Below, piece after piece: positions 1 through 15,628 of a stretch of DNA of 15,628 bases; positions within the stretch are counted from its first letter, which is position 1; each line of letters opens with the position of its first letter. A program made the translations under genes and the position numbers. The stretch lies in IMG/VR virus record IMGVR_UViG_2724679293_000002. One strand, 5' to 3'. Source of the DNA: a virus. Taxonomy: Duplodnaviria; Heunggongvirae; Uroviricota; Caudoviricetes. Under the pieces are notes generated by a model. It saw only the letters and a program-made list of their open reading frames with translations, was not told the DNA's origin and searched no databases.

Positions 1-1
1 T

Positions 2-628
2 GCAGATACGTCCGTTCGCACAATCTCCCTGCTGCCGGCAGCCGGAGAGGCTGCTGCGCAGGGCTGGAGCATTAAGGATGGCGGAATTCAGTTGTCAGAT
101 GGTGTATTTAAGATCACCAAGCAGAGCAATAAAACCTGGTCCCTGACGCATCCGGTGGATGACGCAATTACCCTGCTGACACAGGGCGGCAGACTGACCT
201 GTAAGTTCCGCCTGTCAGGCGCACTGACCAACAATCAGTTCGGGCTGGGGATTTATCTGTATACGGATGCTCCCGTTCCTGATGGTGTGGCGATGACGGG
301 TACCGGTAATCCGTTCCTGATGTCGTACTTCACTCAGACCACTGACGGCAGAGTGAATCTGATGCATCACAGGAAAGCCGGAAACACGAAGCTGGGGGAG
401 TTCGGCGATTACGGTAACGACTGGCAGACGCTGGAGCTGGTGTTCACCGCCGGCAGTGCCACGGTTACTCCGAAACTGAATGGAGTGGCTGGCCCGGCAT
501 TCCAGGTTATAAAAGACAGTCTGACACTGGGACTGAATGCGCTGACGCTGACGGATGTTACAAAAAATGCAGCGTATGGCGTTGAGATAGAAAGTCTGAT
601 GCTGGAGATAAATGCACCGGCAGCATAA
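2..628 (+). CDS. C-terminal fragment of a larger late-region protein of unknown function; 5' end lies outside the window
   Basis: The reading frame of the 92..628 ORF stays open back to position 2 with no stop, so the listed TTG start is probably internal. The translation is beta-rich and Gly/Thr-rich, with no motif I can assign. It sits where lambdoid phages carry cargo genes between Q and the lysis cassette. Confidence 0.5.
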   Translation, partial: ADTSVRTISLLPAAGEAAAQGWSIKDGGIQLSDGVFKITKQSNKTWSLTHPVDDAITLLTQGGRLTCKFRLSGALTNNQFGLGIYLYTDAPVPDGVAMTGTGNPFLMSYFTQTTDGRVNLMHHRKAGNTKLGEFGDYGNDWQTLELVFTAGSATVTPKLNGVAGPAFQVIKDSLTLGLNALTLTDVTKNAAYGVEIESLMLEINAPAA

Positions 629-930
629 TAAAAAAAGCCAGCGACTGACCTGAAAAAGAAGACGCTGGCTAAAAGGCCTTATATGTTTGTAGAGACTTAT
701 TTTTCACAGACAGCAATGATGCCTGTCAATATATTATCAATATGCGGATTGTTTCAGTTACAGATGCCTTATTAAGGAAAAAAACAGCCAGCACTGACTT
801 TCGGTGGAGAGGTGCTGGCTCAAAAGGATAGATGTACTTCACATGTTGCTTCTATATGGCAGTACATTTTCTGACAGACAGTGACGGATGTTGTCAAGAT
901 ATTGTGTCATTTATAACCTGAATCAGGGGA
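629..930. repeat. Two diverged tandem copies of a ~150-bp non-coding module
   Basis: Copy A (~629-780) and copy B (~779-930) align block by block: aaaaaaagccagcgactgac / aaaaaaacagccagcactgac, ctggctaaaaggcc / ctggctcaaaaggat, ttttcacagacagcaatgatgcctgtcaatatatt / ttttctgacagacagtgacggatgttgtcaagatatt. Each copy has an A-run followed by an inverted repeat. Confidence 0.6.
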
Positions 931-994
931 GGCCGGAATGTTATCTGGCATTTTTAGCAGAGCCTGAATGCCATAATCACGGCTCCCGGCGTTG

Positions 995-1030
995 GCCGTC
1001 AGTGGGTGACACTGGCGGCTTTTTTGTTTT
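995..1030 (+). terminator. Rho-independent terminator-like hairpin with T-run upstream of the holin gene
   Basis: A 10-bp stem (gccgtcagtg / cactggcggc, one G-U pair) with a 5-nt loop is followed by tttttttgtttt. Confidence 0.5.
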
Positions 1031-1075
1031 TCTTTACTTTCATTTTCTGTCGGCGGTGACGGAGACATACATCAG

Positions 1076-1282
1076 ATGGAAAAAATCACAACAGGTGTGT
1101 CATACACCACGTCAGCGGTGGGGACGGGATACTGGTTACTGCAGCTGCTGGACAAAGTCTCTCCGTCCCAGTGGGTGGCAATAGGTGTGCTGGGAAGTCT
1201 GCTGTTTGGCCTGCTGACGTATCTGACAAATCTTTATTTCAAGATTAAAGAAGATAAGCGTAAGGCTGCGAGAGGTGAATAA
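1076..1282 (+). CDS. S: Phage-21-type class II holin (pinholin), 68 aa
   Basis: The sequence [22 protein letters not shown]...[36 protein letters not shown] has two transmembrane domains and a charged C-terminus, matching my recollection of S21. A GGAG Shine-Dalgarno sits 11 nt upstream, and the gene lies directly 5' of the endolysin with a 1-nt start/stop overlap. Confidence 0.9.
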
Positions 1283-1779
1283 TGTCGCCGTCATTACGCA
1301 AGGCTGTTGCAGCTGCTATTGGTGGTGGGGCTGTTGCCATAGCGTCTGTGCTCATCACTGGTCCAGGTGGTAACGATGGTCTGGAAGGTGTCAGCTACAT
1401 ACCATACAAAGATATCGTTGGCGTATGGACTGTATGTCACGGACACACCGGAAAAGACATCATGCCCGGTAAAACGTATACCGAAGCAGAATGCAAAGCC
1501 CTCCTGAATAAAGACCTTGCCACGGTCGCCAGACAAATTAACCCGTACATCAACGTCGATATACCGGAAACAACGCGCGGCGCTCTTTACTCGTTCGTTT
1601 ACAACGTGGGCGCTGGCAATTTCAGAACATCGACGCTTCTTCGCAAAATAAACCAGGGCGATATCAAAGGCGCATGTGATCAGCTACGGCGCTGGACATA
1701 CGCTGGCGGTAAGCAATGGAAAGGGCTGATGACTCGCCGCGAGATTGAGCGTGAAGTCTGTTTGTGGGGGCAACAATGA
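1282..1779 (+). CDS. R: SAR endolysin (T4-lysozyme-like muramidase, R21 type), 165 aa
   Basis: The N-terminus carries a Gly/Ala-rich signal-anchor-release segment ([23 protein letters not shown]), followed by the lysozyme catalytic region [25 protein letters not shown]. It sits between holin and spanin genes. Confidence 0.92.
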
Positions 1780-2213
1780 GCAGGGTAACCGTTATTATCT
1801 CCGCTCTGGTTATCTGCATTATCGCCTGCCTGTCATGGGCTGTTAATCATTACCGTGATAACGCCATCGCCTACAAAGAGCAGCGCGATAAAGCCACATC
1901 CATCATCGCTGATATGCAGAAGCGGCAACGTGATGTAGCAGAACTTGACGCCAGATACACAAAGGAGCTTGCTGATGCTAATGCGACTATCGAAAGTCTC
2001 CGTGCTGATGTTTCTGCTGGGCGTAAGCGCCTGCAAGTCTCCGCCACCTGTGCAAAGTCAACGACCGGAGCCAGCAGCATGGGCGATGGAGAAAGCCCAG
2101 GACTTACAGCAGATGCTGAACTCAATTATTACCGTCTCCGAGGTGGAATCGACAAGATAACCGCGCAGGTTAACTACCTGCAGGAATACATCAGGACGCA
2201 GTGCTTAAAATAA
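1776..2213 (+). CDS. Rz: Inner-membrane spanin Rz (i-spanin)
   Basis: It starts [29 protein letters not shown], an N-terminal transmembrane domain followed by a coiled-coil-like region, as in lambda Rz. ATG 1776 overlaps the R stop (ATGA); the listed ORF start at 1764 is an in-frame GTG extension. Confidence 0.85.
1975..2160 (+). CDS. Rz1: Outer-membrane lipoprotein spanin Rz1 (o-spanin), embedded in the +1 frame of Rz
   Basis: [20 protein letters not shown] has a lipobox (VSAC), followed by the proline-rich [16 protein letters not shown]. An AAGGAG Shine-Dalgarno lies 8 nt upstream of ATG 1975; ATG 1981 is an alternative start. Confidence 0.8.
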
Positions 2214-2253
2214 TTTTAATTTCACTGAAATTTAACAAGTGACTTTCAGGAAA

Positions 2254-2280
2254 ATGCCTCGCAGATGCGGGGCATTTTTG
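2254..2280 (+). terminator. Rho-independent terminator-like hairpin after the lysis cassette
   Basis: Stem atgcctcgc / gcggggcat with loop agat, followed by ttttt. Confidence 0.6.
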
Positions 2281-2362
2281 TACCGGTATTTCACCGCGCA
2301 CCGCAGCGCACAATAAACACCGAACCTGACCCTTTGGAATGGGCCTTTGAGGATACCAGTTA

Positions 2363-2980
2363 GTGCTGGCGAGCCTCGGTGGGCTGGTTTCCTGTGCGGC
2401 AAAGGTTCATTTCAAAGAAGCAGGCAACGCCATGAATGAATTAATTGCGAATCATGACTTCGACTTTCGCCAGTTAGTTACCGCAGCAGAAGGTCAACCG
2501 GTAACTGACACCTTCCAGATTGCCAGGGCATTTGGTAAACGCCATCAGCATGTGATTAGGGCTATTAAATGTTTGAGATGTTCTGAGGAATTCTCGACAA
2601 CCCATTTTGGGGCCGTCGAGAAAATCAATGACTTAGGTATTTTTGACAAGAAACAGATTTACTACCGCATGGACTTTAGTGGCTTCGTTATGCTGGTTAT
2701 GGGATTTAACGGGGCAAAAGCCGATGCTGTTAAAGAAGCCTATATCAATGCGTTTAACTGGATGTCAGCAGAACTCCGTAAGTACAGCGAAAGTTATGAA
2801 GCAGAACGTAACGCCGTAATGCTGGAGTACATGAAAGAGAAGGATGTCGCCAGCATGTCAGGCCGTCTGCTCAATCGCTGGGGGAGAACGAAAAAACCTC
2901 AATTGCTTGCAAAGCTGGAACGTCTGGAGAGACAGGGACAGTTTTTATTACCGGGATTCGATAAAGGTATTCAAGCCTGA
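2363..2980 (+). CDS. Phage regulatory protein, Rha family (pRha domain)
   Basis: The motif FGKRHQHVIRAIKCL matches the pRha signature (FGKRH.NVLRDI) as I remember it. The start is ambiguous: GTG 2363 has a GAGGA Shine-Dalgarno 10 nt upstream (205 aa), while ATG 2432 has a weak one (182 aa). Confidence 0.75.
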   Translation: MLASLGGLVSCAAKVHFKEAGNAMNELIANHDFDFRQLVTAAEGQPVTDTFQIARAFGKRHQHVIRAIKCLRCSEEFSTTHFGAVEKINDLGIFDKKQIYYRMDFSGFVMLVMGFNGAKADAVKEAYINAFNWMSAELRKYSESYEAERNAVMLEYMKEKDVASMSGRLLNRWGRTKKPQLLAKLERLERQGQFLLPGFDKGIQA

Positions 2981-3167
2981 CACATTATGCGCTGTATCGT
3001 CGCCGTATTCCCGCATTAACCATGACCGTAGCCCGACGGGGAATTCCTTCTGCGTGAGTGTGCGGGAATAATCAAAAACGATGCACACCGGGTTTTACTG
3101 TGCTGACAGACGCAGGGTTACCCTCATAGTCGCTTTTCCGGTGCGATGGTGGAAGAAACCGGGATGT

Positions 3168-3362
3168 TCATCCATCATCACTTTGGATTGATGTATATGC
3201 TCTCTTTTCTGACGTTAGTCTCCGACGGCAGGCTTCAATGACCCAGGCTGAGAAATTCCCAGACCCTTTTTGCTCAAGAGCGATGTTAATTTGTTCAATC
3301 ATTTGGTTAGGAAAGCGGATGTTGCGGGTTGTTGTTCTGCGGGTTCTGTTCTTCGTTGACAT
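3168..3362 (-). CDS. Small ribbon-helix-helix-like DNA-binding protein (YlcI-like), 64 aa
   Basis: MSTKNRTRRTTTRNIRFPNQMIEQINIALEQKGSGNFSAWVIEACRRRL reads as a basic N-terminal arm, a beta strand (IRFP), helix A, a Gly loop and helix B. A homologous small ORF lies at the extreme right end of lambda and next to nohD in DLP12, from memory. Confidence 0.7.
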   Translation of the reverse strand: MSTKNRTRRTTTRNIRFPNQMIEQINIALEQKGSGNFSAWVIEACRRRLTSEKRAYTSIQSDDG

Positions 3363-3526
3363 GAGGTTGCCCCGTATTCAGTGTCGCTGATTTGTATTGT
3401 CTGAAGTTGTTTTTACGTTAAGTTGACGCAGATCAATTAATACGATACCTGCGTCATAATTGATTATTTGACGTGGTTTGATGGCGTAGATGCACGTTGT
3501 GACATGTAGATGATAATTATTATCAT

Positions 3527-3598
3527 TTTGCGGGTCCTTTCCGGCGATCCGACAGGTTACGGGGCGGCGACCTCGCGGGTTTTCGCTATTTATGAAAA
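3527..3598. other. cos: cos site: cosQ region and cosN, with the 12-nt cohesive end GGGCGGCGACCT at 3562-3573
   Basis: gggtcctttccggcgatccgacaggttacg | GGGCGGCGACCT | cgcgggttttcgctatttatgaaaattttccgg matches the lambda right-end/left-end junction as I recall it. Confidence 0.9.
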
Positions 3599-3609
3599 TT
3601 TTCCGGGAT

Positions 3610-3711
3610 CCATGTCCGGTTTCTCTTCAAGTTAACTATATGAAAAATATAAAAACAGGTCTTCTGTGAACCGGACATGAACAAAAAACAGACATGTAAA
3701 CCGGACATGAC
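3610..3711. repeat. cosB-position repeat array: three copies of G(A/T)AACCGGACATG(A/G), one inverted and two direct
   Basis: The core CCGGACATG occurs at 3671-3679 and 3701-3709 and as its reverse complement at 3611-3619. An A-tract-rich spacer (3624-3660) separates the inverted copy from the direct copies. No lambda R-site motif (cgtttcc / ggaaacg) is present. Confidence 0.5.
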
Positions 3712-3794
3712 CGGTTTTGTTGTGATTGTGAGGTGAGAGTTTTTGCGAGGTGAGGAGTGGCTACGCAGACTGAAGTTGCCAGGCATTTAAGTCT

Positions 3795-3800
3795 NNNNNN
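3795..3800. other. Run of six ambiguous bases (N), 8 bp upstream of the Nu1 start codon
   Basis: The sequence reads gtctnnnnnnaatgaacaATG. Confidence 0.95.
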
Positions 3801-3808
3801 AATGAACA

Positions 3809-4328
3809 ATGGAAGTCAACAAAAAGCAGCTGGCTGACATTTTCGGCGCGAGTATCCGTACCATTCAGAACTGGCAGGAGCAGGGAATGCCCGTTCTGCG
3901 GGGTGGTGGCAAGGGTAATGAAGTGCTTTATGACTCTGCCGCCGCCATAAAATGGTATGCCGAAAGGGATGCTGAAATTGAGAACGAAAAGCTGCGCCGG
4001 GAAGTTGAAGAACTGCGGCAGGCCAGCGAGACAGATCTCCAGCCAGGGACTATTGAGTACGAACGCCATCGACTTACGCGTGCGCAGGCCGACGCACAGG
4101 AGCTGAAAAATGCCAGAGACTCCGCTGAAGTGGTGGAAACCGCATTCTGTACTTTCGTGCTGTCGCGGATCGCAGGTGAAATTGCCAGTATTCTCGACGG
4201 GATCCCCCTGTCGGTGCAGCGGCGTTTTCCGGAACTGGAAAACCGACATGTTGATTTCCTGAAACGGGATATCATCAAAGCCATGAACAAAGCAGCCGCG
4301 CTGGATGAACTGATACCGGGGTTGCTGA

Positions 4329-4354
<26 letters not shown>
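3809..4354 (+). CDS. nu1: Terminase small subunit Nu1 (lambda type), 181 aa
   Basis: MEVNKKQLADIFGASIRTIQNWQEQGMPVLRGGGKGNEVLYDSAA... is a winged helix-turn-helix DNA-binding domain with an ATP-binding Lys motif. Residues L40, A92 and Q97 match the lambda Nu1 positions known from cosB-suppressor genetics. Confidence 0.95.
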
Positions 4355-8035
<3,681 letters not shown>

Positions 8036-8055
<20 letters not shown>

Positions 8056-9355
8056 TCTCCCGCATATTGCCAGCATGGCTTTTAATGAGCCGCTGATGCT
8101 TGAACCCGCCTATGCGCGGGTTTTCTTTTGTGCGCTTGCAGGCCAGCTTGGGATCAGCCGCCTGACGGATGCGGTGTCCGGCGACAGCCTGACTGCCCAG
8201 GAGGCACTCGCGACGCTGGCATTATCCGGTGATGATGACGGACCACGACAGGCCCGCAGTTATCAGGTCATGAACGGCATCGCCGTGCTGCCGGTGTCCG
8301 GCACGCTGGTCAGCCGGACGCGGGCGCTGCAGCCGTACTCGGGGATGACCGGTTACAACGGCATTATCGCCCGTCTGCAACAGGCTGCCAGCGATCCGAT
8401 GGTGGACGGCATTCTGCTCGATATGGACACGCCCGGCGGGATGGTGGCGGGGGCATTTGACTGCGCTGACATCATCGCCCGTGTGCGTGACATAAAACCG
8501 GTATGGGCGCTTGCCAACGACATGAACTGCAGTGCAGGTCAGTTGCTTGCCAGTGCCGCCTCCCGGCGTCTGGTCACGCAGACCGCCCGGACAGGCTCCA
8601 TCGGCGTCATGATGGCTCACAGTAATTACGGTGCTGCGCTGGAGAAACAGGGTGTGGAAATCACGCTGATTTACAGCGGCAGCCATAAGGTGGATGGCAA
8701 CCCCTACAGCCATCTTCCGGATGACGTCCGGGAGACACTGCAGTACCGGATGGACGCAACCCGCCAGATGTTTGCGCAGAAGGTGTCGGCATATACCGGC
8801 CTGTCCGTGCAGGCTGTGCTGGATACCGAGGCTGCAGTGTACAGCGGTCAGGAGGCCATTGATGCCGGACTGGCTGATGAACTTGTTAACAGCACCGATG
8901 CGATCACCGTCATGCGTGATGCACTGGATGCACGTAAATCCCGTCTCTCAGGAGGGCGAATGACCAAAGAGACTCAATCAACAACTGTTTCAGCCACTGC
9001 TTCGCAGGCTGACGTTACTGACGTGGTGCCAGCGACGGAGGGCGAAAACGCCAGCGCGGCGCAGCCGGACGTGAACGCGCAGATCACCGCAGCGGTTGCG
9101 GCAGAAAACAGCCGCATTATGGGGATCCTCAACTGTGAGGAGGCTCACGGACGCGAAGAACAGGCACGCGTGCTGGCAGAAACCCCCGGTATGACCGTGG
9201 AAACGGCCCGCCGCATTCTGGCCGCAGCACCACAGAGTGCACAGGCGCGCAGTGACACTGCGCTGGATCGTCTGATGCAGGGTGCCCCGGCACCGCTGGC
9301 TGCAGGTAACCCGGCATCTGATGCCGTTAACGATTTGCTGAACACACCAGTGTAA
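8036..9355 (+). CDS. C: Head maturation protease / scaffold C (ClpP/SppA-like), 439 aa
   Basis: It starts at GTG 8036 (VTAELRNLPHIASMAF...), overlapping the B 3' end by 20 nt. The listed ORF start at 7901 is an upstream open-frame extension. Confidence 0.92.
8750..9355 (+). CDS. nu3: Scaffolding protein Nu3, from an in-frame internal start within C
   Basis: ATG 8750 (MDATRQMFAQKV...) is in frame with C, corresponding to lambda Nu3. Confidence 0.8.
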   Translation: MDATRQMFAQKVSAYTGLSVQAVLDTEAAVYSGQEAIDAGLADELVNSTDAITVMRDALDARKSRLSGGRMTKETQSTTVSATASQADVTDVVPATEGENASAAQPDVNAQITAAVAAENSRIMGILNCEEAHGREEQARVLAETPGMTVETARRILAAAPQSAQARSDTALDRLMQGAPAPLAAGNPASDAVNDLLNTPV

Positions 9356-9364
9356 GGGATGTTT

Positions 9365-9697
9365 ATGACGAGCAAAGAAACCTTTACCCATTACCAGCCG
9401 CTGGGCAACAGTGACCCGGCTCATACCGCAACCGCGCCCGGCGGATTGAGTGCGAAAGCGCCTGCAATGACCCCGCTGATGCTGGACACCGCCACCCGTA
9501 AGCTGGTTGCGTGGGATGGCACCACCGACGGTGCTGCCGTTGGCATTCTGGCGGTTGCTGCTGACCAGACCAGCACCACGCTGACGTTCTACAAGTCCGG
9601 CACGTTCCGTTATGAGGATGTGCTCTGGCCGGAGGCTGCCAGCGATGAGACGAAAAAACGGACCGCGTTTGCCGGAACGGCAATCAGCATCGTTTAA
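9365..9697 (+). CDS. D: Capsid decoration protein D, 110 aa
   Basis: It starts [12 protein letters not shown], with AAGGGA 5 nt upstream of ATG 9365. Confidence 0.93.
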
Positions 9698-9717
9698 CCT
9701 TACCCTTCATCACTAAA

Positions 9718-9738
9718 GGCCGCCTGTGCGGCTTTTTT
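9718..9738 (+). terminator. Stem-loop with T-run between D and E
   Basis: gccgcctgtgcggc followed by ttttttt. It lies between two equally abundant capsid genes, so it is more likely an RNA-stability or attenuator element than a strong terminator. Confidence 0.45.
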
Positions 9739-9752
9739 TACGGGATTTTTTT

Positions 9753-10778
9753 ATGTCGATGTACACAACCGCCCAGCTGCTGGCGGCAAATGAGCAGAAA
9801 TTTAAGTTTGATCCGCTGTTTCTGCGTCTCTTTTTCCGTGAGAGCTATCCCTTCACCACGGAGAAAGTCTATCTCTCACAAATTCCGGGACTGGTAAACA
9901 TGGCGCTGTACGTTTCGCCGATTGTTTCCGGTGAGGTTATCCGCTCCCGTGGCGGCTCCACCTCTGAATTTACGCCGGGATATGTCAAACCCAAGCATGA
10001 AGTGAATCCGCAGATGACCCTGCGTCGCCTGCCGGATGAAGATCCACAGAATCTGGCGGACCCGGCTTACCGCCGCCGTCGCATCATCCTGCAGAACATG
10101 CGAGACGAAGAGCTGGCCATTGCTCAGGTCGAAGAGATGCAGGCAGTTTCTGCCGTGCTTAAGGGCAAATACACCATGACCGGTGAAGCCTTCGATCCGG
10201 TTGAAGTGGATATGGGCCGCAGTGTGGCGAACAACATCACGCAGTCCGGCGGTACGGAGTGGAGCAAGCGTGACAAGTCCACGTATGACCCGACCGACGA
10301 TATCGAAGCCTACGCGCTGAACGCCAGCGGTGTGGTGAATATCATCGTGTTTGATCCGAAAGGCTGGGCGCTGTTCCGTTCCTTCAAAGCCGTCAAGGAG
10401 AAGCTGGATACCCGTCGCGGCTCTCATTCCGAGCTGGAGACAGCGGTAAAAGACCTGGGCGAAGCGGTGTCCTATAAGGGGATGTATGGCGATACGGCGA
10501 TCGTCGTGTATTCCGGACAGTACGTGGAAAACGACGTCAAAAAGAACTTCCTTCCGGACAACACGATGGTGCTGGGGAACACTCAGGCACGCGGTCTGCG
10601 CACCTATGGCTGCATTCAGGATGCGGACGCACAGCGCGAAGGTATTAACGCCTCTGCCCGCTACCCGAAAAACTGGGTGACCACCGGCGATCCGGCGCGT
10701 GAGTTCACCATGATTCAGTCAGCACCGCTGATGCTGCTGGCTGACCCTGATGCGTTCGTGTCCGTACAACTGGCGTAA
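9753..10778 (+). CDS. E: Major capsid protein E, 341 aa
   Basis: It starts MSMYTTAQLLAANEQKFKFDPLFLRLFF; length and position match lambda gpE. Confidence 0.95.
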   Translation: MSMYTTAQLLAANEQKFKFDPLFLRLFFRESYPFTTEKVYLSQIPGLVNMALYVSPIVSGEVIRSRGGSTSEFTPGYVKPKHEVNPQMTLRRLPDEDPQNLADPAYRRRRIILQNMRDEELAIAQVEEMQAVSAVLKGKYTMTGEAFDPVEVDMGRSVANNITQSGGTEWSKRDKSTYDPTDDIEAYALNASGVVNIIVFDPKGWALFRSFKAVKEKLDTRRGSHSELETAVKDLGEAVSYKGMYGDTAIVVYSGQYVENDVKKNFLPDNTMVLGNTQARGLRTYGCIQDADAQREGINASARYPKNWVTTGDPAREFTMIQSAPLMLLADPDAFVSVQLA

Positions 10779-10780
10779 TC

Positions 10781-10810
10781 ATGGCCCTTCGGGGCCATTT
10801 TCTCTCTGTG
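10781..10810 (+). terminator. UUCG-tetraloop hairpin with U-rich tail immediately after E
   Basis: atggccc-ttcg-gggccat followed by tttctctct. Confidence 0.45.
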
Positions 10811-10819
10811 GAGGAGTCC

Positions 10820-11215
10820 ATGACGAAAGATGAACTGATTGCCCGTCTTCAGGTGCTGGGTGAGCAACTGAACCGTGATGTCAGCCTGACGGGGACGAAA
10901 GAAGAACTGGCACTCCGTGTGGCAGAGCTGGAAGAGGAGCTTGATGACACGGATGACGCTGCCGGTCAGGACACGTCTGTCAGCCCGGAAAATGCGCTGA
11001 CCGGACATGAAAATGAGGTTGTATCAGCGCAGCCGGATACCGTGACTGATACGGCTGATCTGGTCACGGTTGTGGCACTGGTGACGCTGCATACTGATGC
11101 ACTTCACGCCACGCGGGATGAGGCTGTGGCATTTGTGCTGCCGGGAACGGCGTTCCGTGTCTCTGCCGGTGTGGCAGCTGAAATGACAGAGCGCGGCCTG
11201 GCCAGAATGCAATAA
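10820..11215 (+). CDS. FI: DNA packaging protein FI, 131 aa
   Basis: It starts MTKDELIARLQVLGEQLNRD, with an acidic central linker as in lambda gpFI. Confidence 0.9.
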   Translation: MTKDELIARLQVLGEQLNRDVSLTGTKEELALRVAELEEELDDTDDAAGQDTSVSPENALTGHENEVVSAQPDTVTDTADLVTVVALVTLHTDALHATRDEAVAFVLPGTAFRVSAGVAAEMTERGLARMQ

Positions 11216-11226
11216 CGGGAGGCGCT

Positions 11227-11601
11227 GTGGCTGATTTCGATAACCTGTTCGATGCTGCCATTGCCTGCGCCGATGAAACGATACGCGGGTACATGGGAAC
11301 GTCAGCCACCATGACATCCGGTGAGCAGTCCGGTGCTGTGATACGTGGTGTTTTTGATGACCCTGAAAATATCAGCTATGCCGGACAGGGCGTGCGCGTT
11401 GAAGGCTCCAGCCCGTCCCTGTTTGTCCGGACTGATGATGTGCGGCAGCTGCGGCGCGGCGACACGCTGACCATCGGTGAGGAAAACTTCTGGATAGACC
11501 GGATTTCGCCGGATGATGGCGGAAGCTGTCATCTCTGGCTTGGGCGGGGCGTACCGCCTGCCGTTAACCGTCGCCGCTGGAAGGGGGATGTATGGCCATA
11601 A
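11227..11601 (+). CDS. FII: Head-tail connector protein FII, 124 aa (about 7 aa longer than lambda FII)
   Basis: MADFDNLFDAAIACADETIRGYMG... The frame reads ...PAVNRRR-W-KGDVWP-stop, with TGG at 11578-11580 where I recall lambda having the TGA stop. Confidence 0.85.
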   Translation: MADFDNLFDAAIACADETIRGYMGTSATMTSGEQSGAVIRGVFDDPENISYAGQGVRVEGSSPSLFVRTDDVRQLRRGDTLTIGEENFWIDRISPDDGGSCHLWLGRGVPPAVNRRRWKGDVWP

Positions 11602-12170
11602 AAGGTCTTGAGCAGGCCGTTGAAAACCTCAGCCGTATCAGCAGAACGGCGGTGCCCGGTGCCGCCGCAATGGCCATTAACCGCGTTGCTTCATCCGCGA
11701 TATCGCAGTCGGTGTCACAGGTTGCCCGTGAGACAAAGGTACGCCGGAAACTGGTAAAGGAAAGGGCCAGGCTGAAAAGGGCCACGGTCAAAAATCCGCA
11801 GGCCAGAATCAAGGTTAACCGGGGGGATTTGCCCGTAATCAAGCTGGGTAATGCGCGGGTTGTCCTTTCGCGCCGCAGGCGTCGTAAAAAGGGGCAGCGT
11901 TCATCCCTGAAAGGTGGCGGCAGCGTGCTTGTGGTGGGTAACCGTCGTATTCCCGGCGCGTTTATTCAGCAACTGAAAAATGGCCGGTGGCATGTTATGC
12001 AGCGTGTGGCCGGGAAAAACCGTTACCCCATTGATGTGGTGAAAATCCCGATGGCGGTGCCGCTGACCACGGCGTTTAAACAAAATATTGAGCGGATACG
12101 GCGTGAACGTCTTCCGAAAGAGCTGGGCTATGCGCTGCAGCATCAACTGAGGATGGTAATAAAGCGATGA
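11592..12170 (+). CDS. Z: Tail completion protein Z, 192 aa
   Basis: It starts MAIKGLEQAVENLSRIS; length and position match lambda gpZ. Confidence 0.93.
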   Translation: MAIKGLEQAVENLSRISRTAVPGAAAMAINRVASSAISQSVSQVARETKVRRKLVKERARLKRATVKNPQARIKVNRGDLPVIKLGNARVVLSRRRRRKKGQRSSLKGGGSVLVVGNRRIPGAFIQQLKNGRWHVMQRVAGKNRYPIDVVKIPMAVPLTTAFKQNIERIRRERLPKELGYALQHQLRMVIKR

Positions 12171-12562
12171 AACATACTGAACTCCGTGCAGCCGTACTGG
12201 ATGCACTGGAGAAGCATGACACCGGGGCGACGTTTTTTGATGGTCGCCCCGCTGTTTTTGATGAGGCGGATTTTCCGGCAGTTGCCGTTTATCTCACCGG
12301 CGCTGAATACACGGGCGAAGAGCTGGACAGCGATACCTGGCAGGCGGAGCTGCATATCGAAGTTTTCCTGCCTGCTCAGGTGCCGGATTCAGAGCTGGAT
12401 GCGTGGATGGAGTCCCGGATTTATCCGGTGATGAGCGATATCCCGGCACTGTCAGAGTTGATCACCAGTATGGTGGCCAGTGGCTATGACTACCGACGCG
12501 ACGATGATGCGGGCCTGTGGAGTTCAGCCGATCTGACTTATGTCATTACCTATGAAATGTGA
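12167..12562 (+). CDS. U: Tail terminator protein U, 131 aa
   Basis: It starts [18 protein letters not shown]; ATGA overlap with Z. Confidence 0.93.
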
Positions 12563-12569
12563 GGACGCT

Positions 12570-13310
12570 ATGCCTGTACCAAATCCTGTAATGCCGGTGA
12601 AAGGTGCCGGGACCACCCTGTGGGTTTATAAGGGGAGCGGTGACCCTTATGCGAATCCGCTTTCAGACGTTGACTGGTCGCGTCTGGCAAAAGTTAAAGA
12701 CCTGACGCCCGGCGAACTGACCGCTGAGTCCTATGACGACAGCTATCTCGATGATGAAGATGCGGACTGGACTGCGACCGGGCAGGGGCAGAAATCAGCC
12801 GGAGATACCAGCTTCACGCTGGCGTGGATGCCCGGAGAGCAGGGGCAGCAGGCGCTGCTGGCGTGGTTTAATGAAGGTGATACCCGTGCCTATAAAATCC
12901 GCTTCCCGAACGGCACGGTCGATGTGTTCCGTGGCTGGGTCAGCAGTATCGGTAAAGCGGTGACGGCGAAGGAAGTGATCACCCGCACGGTGAAGGTCAC
13001 CAATGTGGGACGCCCGTCGATGGCAGAAGATCGCAGCACGGTCACAGCGGCAACCGGCATGACCGTGACGCCTGCCAGCACCTCGGTGGTGAAAGGGCAG
13101 AGCACCACGCTGACCGTGGCATTCCAGCCGGAAGGCGCAACCGACAAGAGCTTCCGTGCGGTGTCTGCGGATAAAACAAAAGCCACCGTGTCGGTCAGTG
13201 GTATGACCATCACCGTGAAAGGTGTTGCTGCAGGCAAGGTCAACATTCCGGTCGTATCCGGTAATGGTGAACTTGCTGCGGTTGCAGAAATCACTGTCAC
13301 CGACAGTTAA
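12570..13310 (+). CDS. V: Major tail tube protein V, 246 aa, with C-terminal Ig-like domain
   Basis: ATG 12570 ([22 protein letters not shown]...) has a GAGGA Shine-Dalgarno upstream. The listed start at 12540 is an upstream extension. Confidence 0.93.
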
Positions 13311-13325
13311 TCCGGAGAGTCAGCG

Positions 13326-13748
13326 ATGTTCCTGAAAACCGAATCATTTGAACATAACGGCGTGACCGTCACGCTTTCTGAACTTTCAGCCCTGCAGCGT
13401 ATTGAGCATCTCGCCCTGATGAAACGGCAGGCAGAACAGGCGGAGTCAGACAGCAACCGGAAGTTTACAGTGGAAGACGCCATCAGAACCGGTGCTTTTG
13501 TGGTGGCGATGTCCCTGTGGCATAACCATCCGCAGAAGACAAAGCAGCCTTCCATGAATGAAGCCGTTAAACAGATTGAGCAGGAAGTGCTTACCACCTG
13601 GCCCACAGAGGCAATTTCTCATGCTGAAAACGTGGTGTACCGGCTGTCCGGTATGTATGAGTTTGTGGTGAATGATGCCCCTGAACAGGCAGAGGACGCC
13701 GGGCCTGCAGAGCCTGTTTCTGCGGGAAAGTGTTCGACGGTGAGCTGA
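13326..13748 (+). CDS. G: Tail assembly chaperone G, 140 aa
   Basis: It starts MFLKTESFEHNGVTVTLSEL. Confidence 0.92.
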   Translation: MFLKTESFEHNGVTVTLSELSALQRIEHLALMKRQAEQAESDSNRKFTVEDAIRTGAFVVAMSLWHNHPQKTKQPSMNEAVKQIEQEVLTTWPTEAISHAENVVYRLSGMYEFVVNDAPEQAEDAGPAEPVSAGKCSTVS

Positions 13749-14164
13749 GTTTTGCCCTGAAACTGGCGCGCGAGATGGGGCGACCCGACTGGCGTGCCAT
13801 GCTTGCCGGGATGTCATCCACGGAGTATGCCGACTGGCACCGCTTTTACAGTACCCATTATTTTCATGATGTTCTGCTGGATATGCACTTTTCCGGGCTG
13901 ACGTACACCGTGCTCAGCCTGTTTTTCAGCGATCCGGATATGCATCCGCTGGATTTCAGTCTGCTGAACCGGCGTGAGGCTGACGAAGAGCCTGAAGATG
14001 ATGTGCTGATGCAGAAAGCGGCAGGGCTTGCCGGAGGCGTCCGCTTTGGCCCGGACGGGAATGAAGTTATCCCCGCTTCCCCGGATGTGGCGGACATGAC
14101 GGAGGATGACGTAATGCTGATGACAGTATCAGAAGGGATCGCAGGAGGAGTCCGGTATGGCTGA
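13326..14164 (+). CDS. T: Tail assembly chaperone G-T fusion made by programmed -1 ribosomal frameshift
   Basis: The slippery heptamer G GGA AAG lies at 13724-13730 near the end of G; the -1 frame continues as the 13730..14164 ORF (VFDGELSFALKLAREMG...). Confidence 0.85.
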
Positions 14165-15628
14165 ACCGGTAGGCGATCTGGTCGTTGATTTAAGTCTGGA
14201 TGCGGCCAGATTTGACGAGCAGATGGCCAGAGTCAGGCGTCATTTTTCCGGTACGGAAAGTGATGCGAAAAAAACAGCGGCAGTCGTTGAACAGTCGCTG
14301 AGCCGACAGGCGCTGGCTGCACAGAAAGCGGGGATTTCCGTCGGGCAGTATAAAGCCGCCATGCGTATGCTGCCTGCACAGTTCACCGACGTGGCCACGC
14401 AGCTTGCAGGCGGGCAAAGTCCGTGGCTGATCCTGCTGCAACAGGGGGGGCAGGTGAAGGACTCCTTCGGCGGGATGATCCCCATGTTCAGGGGGCTTGC
14501 CGGTGCGATCACCCTGCCGATGGTGGGGGCCACCTCGCTGGCGGTGGCGACCGGTGCGCTGGCGTATGCCTGGTATCAGGGCAACTCAACCCTGTCCGAT
14601 TTCAACAAAACGCTGGTCCTTTCCGGCAATCAGGCGGGACTGACGGCAGATCGTATGCTGGTCCTGTCCAGAGCCGGGCAGGCGGCAGGGCTGACGTTTA
14701 ACCAGACCAGCGAGTCACTCAGCGCACTGGTTAAGGCGGGGGTAAGCGGTGAGGCTCAGATTGCGTCCATCAGCCAGAGTGTGGCGCGTTTCTCCTCTGC
14801 ATCCGGCGTGGAGGTGGACAAGGTCGCTGAAGCCTTCGGGAAGCTGACCACAGACCCGACGTCGGGGCTGACGGCGATGGCACGCCAGTTCCATAACGTG
14901 ACGGCGGAGCAGATTGCGTATGTTGCTCAGTTGCAGCGTTCCGGCGATGAAGCCGGGGCATTGCAGGCGGCGAACGAGGCCGCAACGAAAGGGTTTGATG
15001 ACCAGACCCGCCGCCTGAAAGAGAACATGGGCACGCTGGAGACCTGGGCAGACAGGACTGCGCGGGCCTTCAAATCCATGTGGGATGCGGTGCTGGATAT
15101 TGGTCGTCCTGATACCGCGCAGGAGATGCTGATTAAGGCAGAGGCTGCGTTTAAGAAAGCAGACGACATCTGGAATCTGCGCAAGGATGATTATTTTGTT
15201 AACGATGAAGCGCGGGCGCGTTACTGGGATGATCGTGAAAAGGCCCGTCTTGCGCTTGAAGCCGCCCGAAAGAAGGCTGAGCAGCAGACTCAACAGGACA
15301 AAAATGCGCAGCAGCAGAGCGATACCGAAGCGTCACGGCTGAAATATACCGAAGAGGCGCAGAAGGCTTACAAACGGCTGCAGACGCCGCTGGAGAAATA
15401 TACCGCCCGTCAGGAAGAACTGAACAAGGCACTGAAAGACGGGAAAATCCTGCAGGCGGATTACAACACGCTGATGGCGGCGGCGAAAAAGGATTATGAA
15501 GCGACGCTGAAAAAGCCGAAACAGTCCGGCGTGAAGGTGTCTGCGGGCGATCGTCAGGAAGACAGTGCTCATGCTGCCCTGCTGACGCTTCAGGCAGAAC
15601 TCCGGACGCTGGAGAAGCATGCCGGAGC
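14157..15628 (+). CDS. H: Tail tape-measure protein H, N-terminal part; continues beyond the window end
   Basis: ATG 14157 (MAEPVGDLVVDLSLDAARFDEQMARVRRHF...) opens a frame with no stop to the window end. It is absent from the ORF track because it has no stop. Translation is Ala/Gln/Lys-rich and coiled-coil-like. Confidence 0.9.
   Translation, partial: MAEPVGDLVVDLSLDAARFDEQMARVRRHFSGTESDAKKTAAVVEQSLSRQALAAQKAGISVGQYKAAMRMLPAQFTDVATQLAGGQSPWLILLQQGGQVKDSFGGMIPMFRGLAGAITLPMVGATSLAVATGALAYAWYQGNSTLSDFNKTLVLSGNQAGLTADRMLVLSRAGQAAGLTFNQTSESLSALVKAGVSGEAQIASISQSVARFSSASGVEVDKVAEAFGKLTTDPTSGLTAMARQFHNVTAEQIAYVAQLQRSGDEAGALQAANEAATKGFDDQTRRLKENMGTLETWADRTARAFKSMWDAVLDIGRPDTAQEMLIKAEAAFKKADDIWNLRKDDYFVNDEARARYWDDREKARLALEAARKKAEQQTQQDKNAQQQSDTEASRLKYTEEAQKAYKRLQTPLEKYTARQEELNKALKDGKILQADYNTLMAAAKKDYEATLKKPKQSGVKVSAGDRQEDSAHAALLTLQAELRTLEKHAG

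Follow-up and report, generated by a model that had tools for sequence, protein, structure and literature searches.

Lysis genes and the neighboring head genes

The region from 1076 to 2213 of the 15,628-nucleotide stretch of phage DNA analyzed here (the window) represents the lysis cassette in the late operon of a lambdoid prophage of E. coli. It encodes a pinholin (S), a SAR endolysin (R) and a two-component spanin (Rz/Rz1), and all four genes are intact.

1076-1282, plus strand: S, class II holin (pinholin), 68 amino acids, single start, corresponding to S21-68 (PF04971)
1282-1779, plus strand: R, SAR endolysin, 165 amino acids (PF00959)
1776-2213, plus strand: Rz, inner-membrane spanin subunit, 145 amino acids (PF03245)
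1975 or 1981-2160, plus strand, inside Rz in another frame: Rz1, outer-membrane lipoprotein spanin subunit (PF06085)

We found that S is closely related to the holin of phage 21. S matched PF04971 ('Bacteriophage P21 holin S') with 112.1 bits (cutoff 26) over profile positions 1-63 of 64, and was 75% identical to S21 across the 68 residues of S21-68. By hydropathy computation only (Kyte-Doolittle), the first transmembrane domain (TMD1, residues ~9-26) is weakly hydrophobic (about 0.4-1.1) and the second (TMD2, residues ~37-48) strongly so (1.4-2.5). Just M-E-K precedes TMD1, and the C-terminus is basic. The stop codon of S overlaps the start codon of R at 1282, placing S directly upstream of the SAR endolysin gene. 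Given the 75% identity to S21-68, S would be expected to form pinholes (about 2 nm, heptameric) that depolarize the membrane and do not release cytoplasmic endolysin.

R matched the phage lysozyme family PF00959 (155.8 bits), was 98% identical to the phage-21-type R of phi458, and matched the solved R21 and RrrD lysozymes (PDB 3hde and 4zpu, E about 1e-107). The catalytic residues E35/D44/T50 could be read off the translation (Glu-8aa-Asp-5aa-Thr). Residues 8-27 make up a Gly/Ala-rich N-terminal predicted SAR domain with one difference (V18 vs I) from those of RrrD (PDB chain 4zpu) and phi458 R. Rz matched PF03245 (E 1e-34), and PGAP places its start at the same codon in an E. coli prophage with 99.9% identity. 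Rz1 matched PF06085 (E 4e-20), starts at either ATG 1975 or ATG 1981, and has the lipobox V-S-A-C in its translation. A first-pass annotation of this DNA had proposed lysis genes of the pinholin plus SAR endolysin type and not of the lambda S105/R type. The Pfam families, the matches to S21, phi458 and the PDB structures, and the lack of DNA similarity to lambda S-R bear this out.

We compared the window to lambda using blastn. The lysis cassette of lambda has the same late-operon position, upstream of Rz/Rz1 and cos, but the lambda S105/S107 class I holin and R transglycosylase represent another holin class and another endolysin type. There was no alignment before 1776, that is, none across S and R. 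Because similarity resumes at Rz (75.6% identity at 1776-2024), the segment exchanged relative to lambda is S-R and not everything to the left of cos. Between Rz and cos, a Rha-family/ORF11CD3-domain gene (2363-2980) lies where lambda and phage 434 have bor, and is followed by a DUF3950 (YlcI/YnfO) gene on the minus strand (3168-3362). Beyond the Rha/ORF11CD3 interruption, similarity to lambda was 96% at 3151-3606, and from Nu1 on it was 98.1% (3801-15628). The statement that everything to the right of cos is lambda-type thus holds from Nu1 onward, but not for cosB (3607-3795), which is of a different type.

The segment at 3607-3795 matches, with 100% identity, cosB plus the 13 opening codons (VATQTEVARHLSL) of another small-terminase gene, of O157:H7 type. 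Prophages of O157:H7 and other E. coli carry this segment (1165 genomes), and it is 93% identical to the PhiR12 phages. After it come NNNNNN (3796-3801) and a lambda-type Nu1. A GGATCC at the left edge of 3607-3800 raised the possibility of an engineered insert, which we rejected, as the segment occurs naturally in those 1165 genomes. All of the natural loci with exactly the Nu1 of the window (8/8) have a lambda-type cosB. Among the best 25 complete E. coli genomes matching window positions 1-4000, none (0/25) spans the cosB/Nu1 join; each has ~95% coverage, split around the segment. The cosB segment is anomalous only in its join to lambda Nu1, which reflects either an artefact of assembly or scaffolding or a recombinant in which the packaging specificities of cosB and Nu1 do not match.

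We found that a pinholin cassette next to a lambda-type head is a common arrangement. At least 15 phage genomes cover at least 80% of the window and have a P21-type S-R contiguous with lambda-type head genes, among them PhiR49_1, PhiR70_1, PhiR11_1, mEp332, Turner, Kati and IdasGreatGrand. Eight loci encode exactly the Nu1 of the window, and a PF04971 holin was present in all five of those with a visible lysis cassette. Among complete E. coli genomes, 217 carry the whole 4-kb arrangement. The first-pass annotation had read the combination as pointing to a modular exchange of the lysis cassette; by these counts it is nothing special and essentially typical of close lambda relatives. Among these relatives, the pinholin cassette is the norm and the lambda S105/R pair is the minority state.

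The start region of S

The lysis genes of phage 21 resemble those of the window in Pfam family, in the order S-R-Rz/Rz1 and in their overlapping stop and start codons. In contrast, S21 starts with MKSM and its longer form, with Lys2, is an antiholin. The window has neither feature. The elements at and upstream of the start of S are as follows.

994-1030, plus strand: intrinsic terminator, 11-bp stem and T-run, 45 nt upstream of S (terminator scan)
1061-1064, plus strand: Shine-Dalgarno sequence GGAG, the sole one for S (anti-Shine-Dalgarno duplex scan; ribosome-binding site in the phage 434 record)
1067-1075, plus strand: ATA CAT CAG, what is left of the dual-start motif's upstream half (start-region comparison)

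We found that S has a single start codon. In the frame of ATG 1076, the nearest upstream stop codon is TGA 1007-1009, with 22 codons between. There is no ATG, GTG, TTG, CTG, ATT or ATC among these 22 codons, and the sole near-cognate codon is ATA 1067-1069. By itself this is unremarkable: the chance of a run of 22 random codons without a start is roughly (61/64)^22 = 0.35. The missing start carries weight only because a second ATG is conserved in homologues, at a distance of exactly 2-3 codons. At the position of 1067-1075, relatives carry ATG TAC CAG, ATG TAT CGA or ATG AAA TCA. The start regions compare as follows.

S21 (phi458): ATG AAA TCA ATG, MKSM
Phage cdtI: ATG AAA TCC ATG, MKSM
Pectobacterium phage ZF40: ATG CGT ATG, MRM
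Two Klebsiella phages: ATG TAT CGA/CGC ATG, MYRM
Stx2 phage 1717: ATG TAC CAG ATG, MYQM
Window: ATA CAT CAG ATG, (IHQ)M

The in-frame walk to TGA 1007 and the start-region comparison both agree with the first-pass annotation, which had noted that S has no upstream in-frame start and hence no dual start.

The spacing of the ribosome-binding site also differs from that in relatives. GGAG 1061-1064 is separated by 11 nt from ATG 1076 and by 2 nt from ATA 1067. In dual-start relatives, the single Shine-Dalgarno sequence has a spacing of about 6-7 nt to the first ATG and 15-16 nt to the second. Compared with the Stx type, the window lacks 5 nt (GGGGT) between GGAGAC and the former first codon. The 11-nt spacing exceeds the optimum, and the expression level of S is correspondingly uncertain.

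A longer, antiholin-like form of S might be made from a non-canonical codon, for example ATA 1067. ATA CAT CAG lies exactly where relatives have ATG-x-x, and the frame is open for 22 codons upstream of ATG 1076. However, ATA 1067 is just 2 nt from the sole Shine-Dalgarno sequence, too near for normal initiation, and E. coli initiates very poorly at ATA. None of the other candidate codons (ATG, GTG, TTG, CTG, ATT, ATC) is available in the 22 codons, and the resulting extension (I/M-H-Q) would have no Lys or Arg, hence not the feature that makes S21-71 an antiholin. We consider a cryptic start of this sort extremely unlikely. The initiation region of the window probably gives rise to no S product longer than 68 residues.

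The terminator upstream of S is strong. The hairpin has a predicted stability of -21.6 kcal/mol (z -3.64; RNA fold), with 0 of 200 shuffled sequences equally stable, and the phage 434 record annotates a terminator at the position matching 995-1031. It lies in the late transcript, where Q-modified RNA polymerase would presumably pass it. A comparable hairpin and T-run lie ahead of the dual-ATG, Stx-type S. Further upstream, 92-628 encodes the C-terminal end (DUF6645) of a NanS-p-like SASA-family carbohydrate esterase, typical of Stx-phage and 434 late regions. The 450-nt stretch between this gene and S is non-coding and contains several terminator-like hairpins.

Control of the antiholin type could have been relocated, either to another phage or host product or to the RNA level, acting on translation of S. 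The terminator 45 nt upstream of S might point in this direction, and other pinholin systems appear to use accessory factors (e.g., the Lcc6 hypothesis for LambdaSo; bioRxiv 10.1101/2024.01.23.576932). Several observations argue against relocated control. There is no conserved open reading frame for a small membrane protein between nanS-p and S or inside the cassette; the initiation region shows no significant folding (z -0.79); and the terminator is a transcriptional element with a counterpart upstream of the dual-ATG Stx-type S. Together, these make relocated control unlikely. Two specific candidates were rejected. An sdi-like RNA structure that would steer start choice was not found, as the initiation region folds no better than shuffled sequences. 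A separate antiholin gene between nanS-p and S was represented only by an unconserved 98-codon open reading frame (888-1184) that crosses the terminator and the start of S and is in no record's annotation.

We surveyed the start region across the holin family. One genome per species was scanned in Escherichia, Shigella, Salmonella, Enterobacter, Kluyvera, Kosakonia, Phytobacter, Klebsiella, Pantoea, Raoultella, Yersinia, Symbiopectobacterium and others, and 80 loci were recovered. In 72 loci, a pair of ATGs spaced 2-3 codons apart encloses a Lys or Arg codon. Four had both ATGs but no basic residue (MYQ or MDQ), one (in E. albertii) was identical to the 434 type of the window, and three were odd or degraded. 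The extension reads M-Y-R, M-L-R or M-K-S in other genera. The Stx/933W type keeps both ATGs without the basic residue (M-Y-Q, with M-D-Q, M-N-Q and M-F-Q in relatives). The dual-start motif is thus a feature of the prototype and of most members, lies outside the Pfam definition of PF04971, and is absent from S of the window. The dual start with a basic residue is presumably ancestral in the family. Since it is the conserved state (72/80), the single-start state in the window is derived.

Protein lengths alone are a poor guide to the start region. Two 68-residue database holins, P0034 and P0036, were candidates for independent losses of the upstream start. We rejected both: the DNA of P0034 has an in-frame GTG-TTT-CAG-ATG and that of P0036 reads ATG-AAG-ATG, and in both cases gene callers had picked the second ATG. 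Tallies of protein length overstate the number of single-start alleles, because 68-residue entries can hide an upstream start (2/2 checked). Holin genes nearly identical to the E. coli type were also found on short contigs filed under Xanthomonas pisi, Nanosynbacter, Bacillota, Veillonella, Segatella and Alkalicoccobacillus assemblies or metagenome-assembled genomes. These most likely represent contamination or mis-binned enterobacterial prophage DNA.

Phage 434, the Stx phages and the mosaic junction

The single-start S allele is already known from phage 434. In the phage 434 record (GenBank OL657226), S is identical to that of the window (207/207 nt), as are the 446 nt upstream of S (446/446; 630-1075), including the terminator, GGAG and the single ATG. 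The record, annotated by a group specializing in phage lysis, lists CPT_434_72 ('holin class II / pinholin', 68 amino acids), CPT_434_73 (SAR endolysin) and a 4-nt ribosome-binding site 11 nt upstream of S. R of phage 434 is 97% identical to R of the window. The two differ from mid-Rz on, where identity falls to 74% and the sequences then become unrelated. S was likewise called at 68 amino acids by PGAP in the 99.9%-identical E. coli prophage.

We found that the 434-type junction is widespread in E. coli. An 80-nt junction probe matched over its full length in 698 of 5426 complete E. coli genomes (about 13%), which indicates that this is a maintained, functional allele. The Stx-type junction (MYQM) was present in 2397 complete E. 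coli genomes (44%). About 83 close relatives, mostly from IMG/VR, comprised about 25 of the single-start type and about 57 of the MYQM type.

These data also bear on whether the missing start merely reflects mutational decay of a defective prophage in which the cassette is no longer under selection. The window sits in a prophage-like context in E. coli genomes and has an anomalous cosB/Nu1 join near cos, both of which might be expected of a decaying element. However, none of the four lysis genes is disrupted, S and its upstream region are 100% identical to those of a viable, plaque-forming phage, 698 genomes retain the junction with complete or nearly complete (100%) identity, and the Shine-Dalgarno sequence has moved nearer to the remaining start. 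Decay is therefore very unlikely.

To the right of the start region, the window resembles Stx2 phage 1717. Identity to phage 1717 is 100% in the S68 part of S, in R and in the first 249 nt of Rz, and 99.7% over 1073-2217. In contrast to the window, Stx phages of the 933W/1717/2851 type have ATG TAC CAG ATG and a 71-codon open reading frame with no basic residue in the extension. Similarity to phage 1717 sets in at 1073, just 3 nt ahead of the ATG; upstream of that point, its DNA is unrelated to that of the window. There is thus a sharp mosaic junction at 1073-1075, with identity to phage 434 on the left and to phage 1717 on the right. The two start positions lie on either side of this junction, which places the upstream ATG in the upstream module. 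The 434-type upstream module may have arrived by recombination and not by point mutation.

The comparisons suggest how the single-start state might have arisen. An ancestor would have had two ATGs with Lys or Arg between them. The Stx/933W clade would then have lost the basic residue (MYRM to MYQM), and in the 434-type upstream module the ATG would be gone as well. This order of events, basic residue first and ATG second, is suggested by parsimony and by similarity across only 9 nt. In the Stx lineage, a working charge-based antiholin may have been missing even before loss of the ATG, because the MYQ extension lacks a basic residue. We propose tentatively, at somewhat less than even odds, that the commonest pinholin lineage of E. 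coli lost its antiholin stepwise: first the basic residue, then the ATG, with the Shine-Dalgarno sequence brought 5 nt closer. Our literature search found no discussion of the departure of the E. coli Stx/434 lineage from the dual-start motif.

Pinholin function and lysis timing

Our results are best explained if the 434-type S, in a derived single-start state, yields only active S68 and no intrinsic antiholin. We put the probability of this reading, which is based on sequence comparison, at roughly 0.85. With ATA in place of the upstream ATG at which relatives would start the 71-residue antiholin, the 68-residue holin alone would be translated. By homology to phage 21, S would build up in the inner membrane until the weakly hydrophobic TMD1 exits the bilayer. 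TMD2 would then oligomerize into small pinholes, collapsing the proton-motive force. The membrane-tethered SAR endolysin would next be released and activated, and the spanin would disrupt the outer membrane last.

In phage 21, the longer form delays this process. According to three reports (PMC9636201, PMC13056207, and bioRxiv 10.1101/2024.01.23.576932), the extra basic residue of S21-71 impedes externalization of TMD1, and S21-71 forms inactive heterodimers with S21-68, so that triggering is delayed. If only S68 is made, lysis would be timed without a self-encoded inhibitor. Timing would then be set by the rate at which S68 accumulates, as determined by late transcription and the initiation region, and by the intrinsic triggering threshold of the allele. 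S21 alleles with the short form alone reportedly lyse earlier (Barenboim et al. 1999). It is reasonable to suppose that lysis timing may be regulated differently in the single-start allele.

There is a precedent for single-start pinholins. Haemophilus phage HP1 has a pinholin and SAR endolysin pair that is reported to lack both a dual-start motif and an antiholin (PMC7312051). Unlike S of the window, the HP1 pinholin belongs to another holin family and has another proposed topology change.

Little at this locus is new: the genes are identical at the nucleotide level to those of phage 434 and Stx2 phages, and a 68-residue single-start pinholin has already been annotated publicly. What the comparison brings out is that the E. 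coli Stx/434 lineage is an exception in a family in which roughly 90% of loci, across Enterobacterales, have a dual start and a basic residue. In Stx phages, the timing of the holin is relevant to the release of toxin. The three natural alleles (MK/YR-M, MYQ-M and the single start) form a series for probing the contribution of the pinholin antiholin. If our reading is true, these natural alleles would test the role of the dual-start antiholin in the timing and precision of pinholin lysis, including the lysis that releases Shiga toxin.
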